NCBI GenBank assembly: GCA_015661075.1
Contig: JACVQJ010000004.1
Span: forward strand, 32,194-96,193
Origin: Parachlamydiales bacterium
Lineage (GTDB): Bacteria; Chlamydiota; Chlamydiia; Chlamydiales; SM23-39
Direction: 5' to 3'
DNA length: 64,000 nucleotides
Positions within the stretch are counted from its first letter, which is position 1, and every line of letters begins with the position of its first letter. The position numbers were made by a program. This document shows positions 33,901-36,900 of this stretch, one piece after another.

Positions 33901-36900
33901 CCATTGAAGAGCGAATTGAACGACTGAAGAATACAATATAATTTAATTGATTCTTTATATTATTAGCGAGGTTTGCTAATTTATTACGACGATGAAAAAA
34001 CATAAGATCGTCGTTGGCATGTCTGGCGGCGTAGATTCTTCGGTTTCAGCCTACCTCCTCAAGCAGCAGGGGCACGACGTCACCGGATTTTTCATGAAAA
34101 ACTGGGAAGAAGCCGATGTGCAAGGGGTCTGCATGTCCACGCGCGACTATGAAGACGTCTCTGCTGTCTGCTCGCAGATCGGCATCCCCTACTATAGCGT
34201 TAATTTTGTGAAAGAATACCGCGAGGCGGTATTCGAGAAATTCCTTGACGATTGTAAAGCCGGCCTGACTCCCAACCCCGACGTTTTGTGCAACCGGGAG
34301 ATCAAATTCAAAGTTTTCATGAACAAAGCGATGGAATTCGGCGCTGATTTCCTCGCCACGGGCCACTATTGCCGCACGCAAGTATACAATGACAAAACCT
34401 GCCTTCTCAAGGGAACCGATCCGAACAAGGACCAAAGTTATTTTCTTCACGCCGTGAATCAATCGGCACTGGCCAAAACCCTGTTTCCGATTGGCCACCT
34501 GCTCAAGAGCCAGGTGAGAGCCATCGCCCGCGAGGCGAGTCTCGCCACATCCGAAAAAAAAGACAGCACCGGCCTCTGCTTCATCGGGGAGAGGAATTTT
34601 AAGCAGTTTCTGAGCCAATTCATCGGTTTCCAGAGCGGGCCGCTTCTCACCCTCGATGGCCGCATTGTGGGGCAGCATGATGGCTATGCCTACTATACGA
34701 TTGGCCAGCGCAAGGGAATCGGCCTCGGCGGCGAGGGCGAAGCCTGGTTCGTCGTGGGAAAAGACCCCGCCCGCAACGCCGTCTACGTAGAAAGGGGCGA
34801 AAAACATCCCGCACTCTACTTTGATGAACTGATCGCCCAGGAGCTGACCTGGATCAACGAGCCCCCTTCCCTGCCACACCGCTGTTTCGCCAAGATCCGC
34901 TACCGACAAAAAGATGTGCCCTGCGAGATCCTGTTGAACGATGACACTACTCTGCGCATCGCGTTCAATGATCCGCAACGAGCCGTGACTCCGGGCCAAT
35001 CCATCGTCTTCTACGACGGCGACATAACGCTCGGCGGAGGCGTCATCCGGCAAGCCGGCCCCAGTTATTTTGAGAGAGTGTCTACAAAGTCTAATTTTTA
35101 GTAGAATACTCGGCTTTCAACGAGGAAAGCTTCATGAGAAAGTCATATCCTGACGACCTAAATGACAAAGAGTGGGAGCAAATCAAACGGATGACTTCAC
35201 TATGAGATCATCTCACTGTTCTATTTCAGGGAAGGACAGGATAAGCAGGATCGCAAGCGGCAGGATATGCAAGATGATATAAGTGACTTACCTCATTCAG
35301 CCCTCACGAAAAAGATTCTGCAATCTTGCTTTGAAGTGATGAACACATTGGGCTGTGGATTCCTAGAATCTGTCTATAAAAATGCACTCATTATTGCATT
35401 GGTAGACAAGGGGTTAAGTGTGCACACTGACAAGGGATTTGAGGTCATATTTAAACATCGGAAGATCGGTCTGTTCGTCCCAGATGTCATCGTTGAGAAT
35501 TCCGTGATCGTAGAGTTGAAATGTTGTGAACATTTGTTGGCTGAGCATCAGGCCCAACTGATTAACTATTTGGCGGTTACCAATGTTCACGTTGGACTGT
35601 TAGTGAATTTTGGCAAAAGGCGTCTCGAGTACAAAAGAACTCATCGTCATCCTGCCCATCCTGCCGCTTGCGATCCTGCTTATCCTGTCCTTCCCTGGGA
35701 TAAAACGGTGGGACGAGCTTATGAAGCGACTTTGTAGACACCCTCTGAGTCGTTCCCTCGGGTAAATTAAATTAATTGCTATTATTACACTTAAAACCAT
35801 ATCGACGTACAATAACCATCATGACCACAACAAATGAATGTCAACCTCAGAATATTACGTCAACCCCAACTGTGGCGGCTCGCGCACACCATCCTCAAAA
35901 GAGTATGTGTGAAAAAATATGGAGAGCTGTCAAGCGTGCTTTTCACTGGATCCTGGTATTTTTCAGGATTGCAAAAGTTCCAAAACTTGATCCTATAAAG
36001 TCAGTCTCTTCAGCACCCCAACCAGTAGCAGGAAATTCACTTCCAGCTCCCAAAATAGTGCCAATCCAACAGCCAGCACCAGAACAAAAAAGAATCTCCT
36101 CATCTTTATCTGAGGCCCAGCCTATTGAGTCCTCTAACGATTTTGATGACTCCTTAAAGAGACTCTGCACATTTGTGGAAAAATTTGTCCAGGATTCTGT
36201 GACAGCCGCTTCAAAGCAGTTTGTCGAACCTCAGATAGAAGGCATTTCAAAATCGGCAGAAAATATACCTAAGCTGCTAGAGCAATTGGGAACTTTTGTT
36301 CTTGGAATTGGCGGAAATAAAAAACCAATTTTTGAACTCCTTAAAAACTGTATACCCGAGCAAGATGTAACTAACACAATCACCTCTTTAGTAGAAGGCA
36401 TCCAACCAGAAAACCGGCATCTCCTACAAGACGCATTAACGATCAAGTTAAAGGCTCTAGGACCTCAAGGCAATCAACCTGGAGTGAATTTTAACGGTTT
36501 TAATCTCAACGAGATTGCCCAAATCGCCCTCACTTGGGCCATAGACAAAAGGCAGGAAAAACTATATGACTTTTTCTCCAGATCCCTGCCAACCGATCCG
36601 AATAATAAATCCTGGATAGAGAAAAATAATGGTTGGCTCGACGTTGTCGCAGAACAGCTGGGTCATGTTTTGATTCATAGAAAGCTTGAAGAGTTAAAAG
36701 GAGGATGGGAAGATAAACTGATTCACAAGCTCACTGAAATTATCCCTCAGTGCCTGGAAAAAAATGGTGCCAAGCTTGGAAAAGTGCTATCGATCCGAAT
36801 TGCAACCCTTATTGAAAAACTCCCCTACTCCAGACTTTTCGACAACTTATTGACGGGCATAAATAAACATGCTGTTGATTATTCAAAAGCTCTATCTGAT

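Follow-up and report, generated by a model that had tools for sequence, protein, structure and literature searches.

Among the derivatives of bacterial insertion sequences (ISs), mobile insertion cassettes (MICs), miniature transposable elements with inverted repeats (MITEs) and transporter ISs are defined in PMC3129680, where a transporter IS is one in which passenger genes are carried along with the transposase of the IS itself. The present analysis concerns a 672-bp relic of the IS5 family, located in the last codons of the mnmA gene of an environmental chlamydia and containing a cassette with a gene of the GxxExxY type. The stretch of DNA analysed, called the window in the following, is 64,000 nucleotides long and corresponds to C26:32194-96193 of genome G000, a 2.01-Mb assembly of 45 contigs, 98.95% complete; the relatives retrieved with its proteins bear the labels Chlamydiae, Parachlamydiales and Rhabdochlamydiaceae. 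G178, G267, G165, G328, G338, G286, G015 and G001 denote other genomes, while L041 and similar labels denote loci or contigs.

A MIC consists of IS ends around a gene other than a transposase; MIC231 of Bacillus cereus, derived from IS231, is one such mobile insertion cassette. GxxExxY proteins (PDDEXK_3) form a very large and very common family, for which, to our knowledge, no function has been established, and no description of a repeat-armed cassette was found in the literature on GxxExxY and PDDEXK_3. Within the IS5 family, a three-nucleotide insertion site is a feature of the IS1031 group, and an element of the IS427 group duplicates TAA (PMC2516522); features of the IS427/IS1031 group are also found in PMC3196728. 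Two other systems to be considered are the repetitive extragenic palindromic (REP) sequences and REPINs with their RAYT proteins, and the NTS repeats found around Ssn nucleases (PMC11893778).

The locus is very probably made of two nested mobile elements, a MIC-like relic of the IS5 family and a GxxExxY cassette, now inert, in a disposable tail of mnmA. MICs, MITEs and nested elements are kinds already known; what this case adds is evidence on a landing site, together with a plausible vehicle for the cassette.

An IS5-family shell in the tail of mnmA

The features on which the original prediction was built, namely 18-bp ends starting with GAG, a flanking TGA duplication, a 23-codon transposase stub followed by an intact GxxExxY gene, and an mnmA stop codon supplied, along with RVSTKSNF, by the IS end, could all be read in the window, and their coordinates are reported in Table 1. 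The left 135 bp of the shell were searched in 300 genomes of the same order: matches were found in 14 of them, one of which, in G178:C98, extends over 120 bp at 83% identity. This 1020-bp contig holds an 863-bp IS, with ends GAGGGTGTCTACAAAGTC, whose orfA begins MRKPYPDDLNDKEWEQI and matches PF13340 (2e-29), while orfB, in a second frame, matches DDE_Tnp_1_2 (PF13586, 1.5e-9). The protein obtained by fusing the two across the AAAGGGGGG site is recognised by NF033580, the model of IS5 family transposases, at 7e-71. IS copies with the same ends occur in G178, G267, G165 and other chlamydial genomes; the flanks of these related copies are of the TNA type (TTA/TTA, TAA/TAA, TCA), with a mismatched TAA/TTA pair in one relative.

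The window copy retains 132 + 26 bp of IS sequence and 23 codons of the transposase. In the alignment, window 35189-35205 (GGATGACTTCACTATGA) corresponds to IS 826-842 (GGATGTCTGCTCTATGA) at 14 out of 17 nt, and window 35717-35745 to IS positions 834-863 at 27 out of 30. The stub terminates in KRMTSL and a stop codon, to be compared with RRMSAL and a stop in the intact relative. At 23 aa it is too short for Pfam, where it has no match, and its origin was settled via the G178 IS. No transposase lies inside the element. The tracing of ends and stub to an IS5 element deprived of its transposase thus held when a real IS with such ends was found, and the shell is a non-autonomous IS5-family derivative, IS427/IS1031-like. 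It is a derivative and not an IS because only 17 N-terminal and 6 C-terminal transposase codons are left.

Inverted pairs of 18 nt, lying 300-1500 nt apart, number 29 in the whole 2.01-Mb genome and are mostly real repeats. By our own arithmetic, the number expected at random, with one mismatch allowed, is about 2 for the genome and about 0.06 for a 64-kb window. A chance origin of the inverted ends at 35074 and 35745 is excluded by this rarity, by the identical 3-bp flanks and by the match to a real IS.

The insertion occurred after MnmA aa 361, past the end of the MnmA equivalog profile NF001138, which covers aa 5-352 and scores 460 bits against a cut-off of 284. The protein now ends in ...GPSYFERVSTKSNF, the last residues (RVSTKSNF) and the stop being derived from the element. 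Removal of 35074-35748 in silico yields ...GPSYFESFPRVN and a stop, which places the element 19 bases upstream of the mnmA stop predicted in this way. The computed tail, ESFPRVN, is the one given by the original prediction; its status as the ancestral end did not stand, as it matches no relative, an outcome that the prediction itself had named as counting against it.

The 120 closest MnmA proteins were compared, the best match being sought among 5.8 billion proteins. A tail of the GPSY type is present in 74 of the 120, most of which continue as x-[MQL]-x-K-x-L, and is missing in the remaining 46. The closest protein (82% identical) ends in GPSYFEMKKPL, GPSY is absent in 5 of the 8 closest, and the x-[MQL]-x-K-x-L continuation is found neither in the present nor in the restored tail of the window gene. 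In the same-genus genome G001, mnmA (78% identical at the amino acid level) has an unrelated tail and another downstream gene, and no empty site was seen there; the gene downstream of mnmA differs in both close relatives. As a more general observation, the C-terminus of many chlamydial MnmA proteins, GPSY[YF]-x-[MQL]-x-K-x-L-P, extends past the ends of the Pfam and NCBIfam profiles and has been lost repeatedly; its counterpart in the window is 35050-35073.

The insertion had been proposed to be tolerated because the element donates a stop codon. It is tolerated instead owing to the dispensable and variable nature of the extreme MnmA tail, since the profile ends at aa 352 and 46 of 120 proteins do without such a tail. 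The left end of the G178 IS carries stops in all three frames, within 6, 8 or 30 codons, and its first 36 bases differ from the window at one position. The MnmA protein is probably unaffected, because only its variable extreme tail has been exchanged (SFPRVN for RVSTKSNF). This tail may have been already degenerate before the insertion, given that 5 of the 8 closest proteins lack GPSY.

The cassette within the shell

The transposase gene was not replaced by the cassette, as had been supposed: the last 6 codons of the transposase follow directly, in frame, upon codon 17, while the cassette is inserted separately, after the stub stop codon and 21 bp from the right tip of the IS. The outer layer would have been an IS5-family element of about 860 bp when intact, with 18-bp GAG ends and a 3-bp TNA duplication. 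An internal deletion would have removed about 700 bp from it, fusing codon 17 to the last 6 and leaving a shell of about 153 bp; the inner layer, the 514-bp cassette, would have been inserted after the stub stop with duplication of TATGA at the junctions. The intact IS contains this pentamer only once (CTCTATGAAAAGAC); in the window, one copy lies to either side of the cassette. Formation of a MITE-like shell of about 153 bp, followed by cassette insertion with a 5-bp duplication, is the most economical reading. Both TATGA junctions also resemble the IS 10-mer TGCTCTATGA (8/10, and 8/9 with one gap, by our own count), possibly the trace of an older, degenerate 10-bp duplication.

The arms of the cassette, which do not figure in the original prediction, form a 76-nt inverted repeat, 86% identical overall, whose perfect 40-nt core brackets the GxxExxY gene. 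Each core is made of two CAGGAT units, a mini hairpin CGCAAGCG and two further CAGGAT units. The start codon is the first triplet past the left core; at the opposite side, the tail of the gene (HPAHPAACDPAYPV) is read from the right arm, the stop codon falls inside the right end of the IS, and the corresponding protein tail, HPAHPAACDPAxPV, is conserved in 58 homologues. Homologues at 72-85% amino acid identity on the metagenome contigs L041, L042 and L043 have the same arms and no IS shell; the arm core differs from that of L041 at 2 of 33 bases, as read by eye. The cassette is therefore a separate unit, which recurs without the shell.

A survey of 47 GxxExxY loci from many phyla identified flanking inverted repeats with a score of at least 40 at 31 of them, and at none of the 940 shuffles and 82 displaced windows used as controls. 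The arms are inverted arrays of 6-7-nt units, with a spacing of 8-12 nt (about 9-10). No consistent duplications were found around the other cassette copies (L041-L104). Rfam, searched with the window cassette and 19 related loci for known RNAs or a 23S intervening-sequence context in the arms, gave no match. ISAs1-type ends, of the kind described below, were considered for the window cassette and rejected, as no 10-bp duplication is present around its perfect CAGGG...CCCTG core (TGTTCTATTT vs GGATAAAACG).

The encoded protein scores 130 bits against a cut-off of 35 for TIGR04256 and 129 bits against 22 for PF13366. The catalytic residues E34, D73, E83 and K85, which fall in invariant columns, are intact, as is the QxxxY motif. 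In an AlphaFold2 model (pLDDT 82) the nearest folds, at low TM-scores, are Cas4 SSO0001 and lambda exonuclease, while a sequence search returned no solved structure; the product is predicted to be a small Cas4/RecB-like PD-(D/E)XK nuclease. No match was obtained for the protein in PADLOC (defence) and PHROGs (phage), and the closest cassette homologue in the protein collection is 85% identical. With a dN/dS of 0.05-0.13, at 49-64% difference of synonymous sites, the protein is under purifying selection; this synonymous divergence stands beside the mere 2 differences in 33 bases between the arm core and that of L041.

The transcript over window 35196-35728 is predicted to fold into a structure with a closing stem of about 70 bp, containing the AUG (minimum free energy -214 kcal/mol, z = -10.3). 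If so, translation would need to begin ahead of transcription of the right arm; alternatively, the stem would be a processing site. Two further observations concern related loci. At L042:2261-2500 the left arm of the homologous cassette is tandemly triplicated upstream of the gene, with a 73-bp period, and a gene for OrfB/TnpB of the IS605 type is present about 1.2 kb away. Fragments of a second GxxExxY subfamily (…IILELKAVEK..HEAQLLSYL..KQVGLLINFNVPVLK) are present at G000:C23:35552-35719, C39:108771-108899 and C11:15120-15201, each joined to another MITE-like palindrome (aaacgctgagtttaaaagaactgagacgcc...), which is repeated on many contigs.

Table 1. Features of the composite element (window positions) and gene-less foldbacks elsewhere in the same genome.
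Feature	Position	Strand	Basis or remark
mnmA (tRNA 2-thiouridine(34) synthase), 369 aa	33992..35101	+	NF001138 3e-138; last 8 codons and TAG from IS left end
Left copy of 3-bp target duplication TGA	35071..35073	.	Sequence read
Left terminal inverted repeat GAGAGTGTCTACAAAGTC	35074..35091	+	Pairs with right end 17/18; 1/18 mismatch vs G178 IS left end
IS5-family left segment, including orfA start	35074..35192	+	IS (G178) positions 1-119, 83% identity
Transposase stub, 23 codons, MRKSYPDDLNDKEWEQIKRMTSL	35134..35205	+	Codons 1-17 N-terminal, last 6 codons and stop C-terminal, in frame
Left TATGA beside inner cassette	35201..35205	.	IS positions 838-842
Left arm of cassette	35202..35277	+	Perfect core 35227-35266
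GxxExxY cassette, 514 bp, CAGGAT-unit inverted arms	35206..35719	+	Same arms around homologues on L041, L042, L043
GxxExxY / PDDEXK_3 gene, 156 aa	35267..35737	+	PF13366 2e-37, TIGR04256 4e-38
Right arm of cassette	35647..35722	+	Perfect core 35658-35697, encodes HPAHPAACDPAxPV
Right TATGA	35720..35724	.	Sequence read and IS alignment
IS5-family right segment, including right terminal inverted repeat	35720..35745	+	IS positions 838-863
Right terminal inverted repeat	35728..35745	reverse complement GAGGGTGTCTACAAAGTC	17/18 match to left end
Right copy of 3-bp target duplication TGA	35746..35748	.	Sequence read
Foldback	C9:41656-41855		Duplication AGTGTGGCTG
Foldback	C29:28884-29067		Duplication CTGCCAAGGT
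Foldback	C41:11539-11723		Duplication GACAAAGAGG
Foldback	C11:14655-15272		Duplication GCCAGCAAGC / GCTAGCAAGC
Further foldback	C39:55012-55185		
Half copy	C20:15556-15658		
Half copy	C4:1-98		

Mobility of the composite and rival readings

Evidence for movement of the composite was sought in its own genome. No autonomous IS5 copies, which the original prediction had proposed to look for, were found there by end pattern, DNA or protein. Searches with the end pattern and with the DNA detected no second IS end, no second stub and no other element DNA in the assembly, and tblastn detected no cognate transposase in its 45 contigs. About 70 bp between imperfect IS5-type ends (GAGAGTGTCCTCTAAG ... 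GATTGTAGACACTCTG) at G000:C37:70905-70980 may be a tiny degenerate remnant or a chance occurrence.

The genome contains no second complete composite copy, only a remnant of 214 bp at C6:14361-14574. This remnant corresponds, at 96% identity, to the gene's 3' half and the right arm, and contains a premature stop. Beyond the cassette, the homology continues for 11 nt of IS-derived sequence, TTATGAAGCGA (CTATGAAAAGA in the IS), without reaching the IS tip; on the 5' side the remnant is truncated by a palindrome of about 150 bp, a repeat of another family (G000:C6:14361-14700, L002). Because the copy carries the IS-derived junction, it suggests that the composite, and not the bare cassette, may once have been at two places. 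Apart from this junction, nothing observed here speaks for mobilisation of the composite, and the originally predicted mobilisation of a passenger is left with one complete copy, a remnant elsewhere and no cognate transposase in the assembly. Because both of its ends are intact, the composite could still be movable if a cognate transposase entered the cell.

Members of the palindromic repeat family that cuts the remnant are also found in the window, at 12014-12140, 32951-33018 and 50906-51034, and inside ispE at 40619-40731. An unrelated feature of the window is a match to the Rfam group II intron catalytic domain at 18792-18866 on the minus strand (42 bits, gathering score 40).

Several points weigh against two nested elements in a disposable tail. 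The composite exists in a single complete copy, in an assembly of 45 contigs, where repeated ISs may hide in the gaps. TATGA is only 5 bp long, the other cassette copies lack a consistent duplication, and the empty site of the cassette is a diverged IS paralogue (83%) in another genome, not an allele. As to the outer insertion, a true empty site was not seen among the sequences compared, which include no conspecific genome and no MnmA closer than 82%. Moreover, DNA homology with the closest mnmA relative (L066) ends precisely at 35073, and the conserved MKKxL codons are absent on the right-hand side of the element, so that the right flank may not be the original neighbour of mnmA.

How the composite came to lie in mnmA can be told in more than one way. 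It may have been already assembled when it transposed into mnmA as a unit, behaving as a working MIC, with the help, in trans, of a transposase that was later lost. Both intact ends (17/18) and the perfect TGA duplication agree with such a transposition, as do the 11 nt of IS junction in the C6 copy, which would place the composite at a second site. An independent GxxExxY gene in a shell with a duplication, in G328, and the multi-copy gene-less shells, also with duplications, speak in the same direction. On the other hand, 11 nt are thin evidence, and the remnant is without both IS tips, so that a duplication could not be seen there in any case. No second complete copy is present in the genome, no cassette homologue closer than 85% in the protein collection, and no cognate transposase in the assembly. 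We give this course of events a little less than an even chance.

The same degree of belief, somewhat short of one half, is assigned to decay in place, by which an entire IS inserted into the tail of mnmA, had its interior deleted and received the cassette separately, the C6 fragment being a later partial copy. The in-frame fusion and the TATGA-flanked insertion are two distinct lesions, as expected in this case, only one full copy exists, and autonomous relatives are rare and patchy within the order (14 of 300 genomes). However, the IS-derived junction of the C6 fragment is left unexplained, and deletion derivatives normally arise once and then spread as MITEs.

It is rather unlikely that the native end of mnmA and its neighbour were lost through an adjacent deletion mediated by the IS, or through recombination of two copies, the matching TGA being coincidental. 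Such a rearrangement would account for the lack of the usual x-[MQL]-x-K-x-L in both the present and the restored tail, for the end of the homology with L066 at 35073, nothing to the right of the element matching L066, and for a downstream gene that differs in both close relatives. These two relatives, however, also differ from one another downstream, and the tail is very labile in the nearest clade (5 of 8 without GPSY), so that its loss may predate the insertion. A perfect duplication points most simply to a simple insertion; yet, given the TNA target preference, two unrelated ends would be alike by chance in about 1 case out of 4, and the matching TGA argues weakly against a rearrangement. 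The empty site would discriminate: after a simple insertion it would read ...TATTTTGAGTCGTTCCC, whereas a rearrangement predicts ...TTTGAAATGAAAAAA... running into a different neighbour.

Finally, that ends and stub resemble an IS by accident, the unit being merely a GxxExxY cassette, is extremely improbable: a short inverted pair can arise by chance, at the rate calculated above, but here 119 contiguous nt share 83% homology with an IS5-family element, including the start codon and 17 codons, the right tip matches at 27 of 30 positions and the 3-bp flanks are identical and of the TNA type.

ISAs1-type shells and comparison with described systems

Another GxxExxY-carrying shell, of the kind that the original prediction proposed to look for, does exist in a sister genus, of the ISAs1 and not of the IS5 type. 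Gene-less foldbacks, dispersed in the genome of the window, have inner arms homologous to those of the cassette (80% over about 55 nt, same architecture) and outer ends of the form CAGGG..ATTGCATGA / ..CCCTG. Target duplications of 10 bp, perfect or matching at 9 of 10 positions, flank 4 of 6 of them, and four more such duplications were found around gene-less foldbacks in G328, which belongs to another genus of the same family. Similar ends are found on a complete IS of the ISAs1 family in G328 (1243 bp, NF033564 375 bits, 9-bp duplication CTTGCTGTC) and on a deleted copy in G338. An ISAs1 transposase encoded in the same genome was rejected as the mover of the foldbacks, being absent from G000 and present in G328, G286 and G338. 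Separately, four CAGGAT-armed foldbacks are arranged head-to-tail, with a spacing of about 190 bp, at G015:C4:735185-735912, in a genome of the same family.

An intact GxxExxY gene, whose own arms are made of AACGAT arrays, lies at G328:C123 (L185:1296-2033; same site in L084) within an ISAs1-type shell of 738 bp, which has a perfect duplication of 9 bp (CTTAATAGG). A GxxExxY cassette in a non-autonomous IS shell is thus represented by two independent cases, from two IS families. The gene-less derivatives have clearly transposed. Their spread is explained by a conventional DDE transposase, and does not testify to the small nuclease moving anything.

For mnmA itself the insertion has no consequence, only a dispensable tail having been exchanged. 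The cassette, in turn, breaks up a sequence that is also known without it, a short duplication marking the junctions, and this is rare direct evidence of entry. The intact cassette in an ISAs1-type shell with a perfect 9-bp duplication adds a concrete fact about a landing site, and duplications of 10 bp, perfect or nearly so, accompany the gene-less elements with homologous arms at eight sites. Taken together, these observations outline a testable and rather conservative route for the spread of the cassette, namely hitch-hiking in MIC or MITE shells, and caution against crediting the mobility of dispersed hairpins to the small nuclease itself. A broader scheme may be offered only tentatively, being more doubtful than not: in this chlamydial family, GxxExxY cassettes would spread inside non-autonomous IS shells moved in trans by DDE transposases, and would persist after gene loss as CAGGAT-armed foldback MITEs, while the split right end of the IS, with its duplicated TATGA (or 10-mer TGCTCTATGA), would reflect a staggered-cut entry of the cassette on its own.

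The closest counterpart of the window element is the one at G328:C123, which comes from the same bacterial family and likewise has a non-autonomous shell, a target duplication and an intact, armed GxxExxY gene. It differs in its IS family (CAGGG ends, duplication of 9-10 bp) and in the AACGAT arm unit; furthermore, its genome contains multi-copy gene-less derivatives and a full ISAs1-family IS, unlike the case of the window element. With the IS427/IS1031-like members of the IS5 family, the shell shares the 18-bp ends starting with GAG and the 3-bp duplication of the TNA type. The intact G178 relative, of 863 bp, combines an N-terminal DUF4096 with a DDE domain, its two reading frames being separated by a frameshift; the DDE transposase is lacking in the window copy, which is for this reason a derivative.

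The original prediction had classified the element as a transporter IS; because no transposase is present inside it, it is a MIC or a MITE-like shell. It is similar to a MIC in having IS ends around a gene that is not a transposase, no transposase of its own and a target duplication, and in being movable only by a cognate transposase in trans. It differs in that its passenger is itself a repeat-armed unit, recurring without the shell, and it is represented by one full copy and the 214-bp remnant, with no cognate transposase in the fragmented assembly.

The REP/RAYT and NTS/Ssn systems are comparable in that a single small gene of nuclease type lies between inverted repeats and gene-less copies are dispersed. 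The fold here is PD-(D/E)XK, and not HUH/Y1 or GIY-YIG. Identity with a REPtron was rejected on the same grounds, the enclosed protein being a PD-(D/E)XK nuclease instead of an HUH/Y1 transposase. Unlike in those systems, the dispersed gene-less copies described here carry ISAs1-type ends and target duplications, so that a DDE transposase explains their spread.

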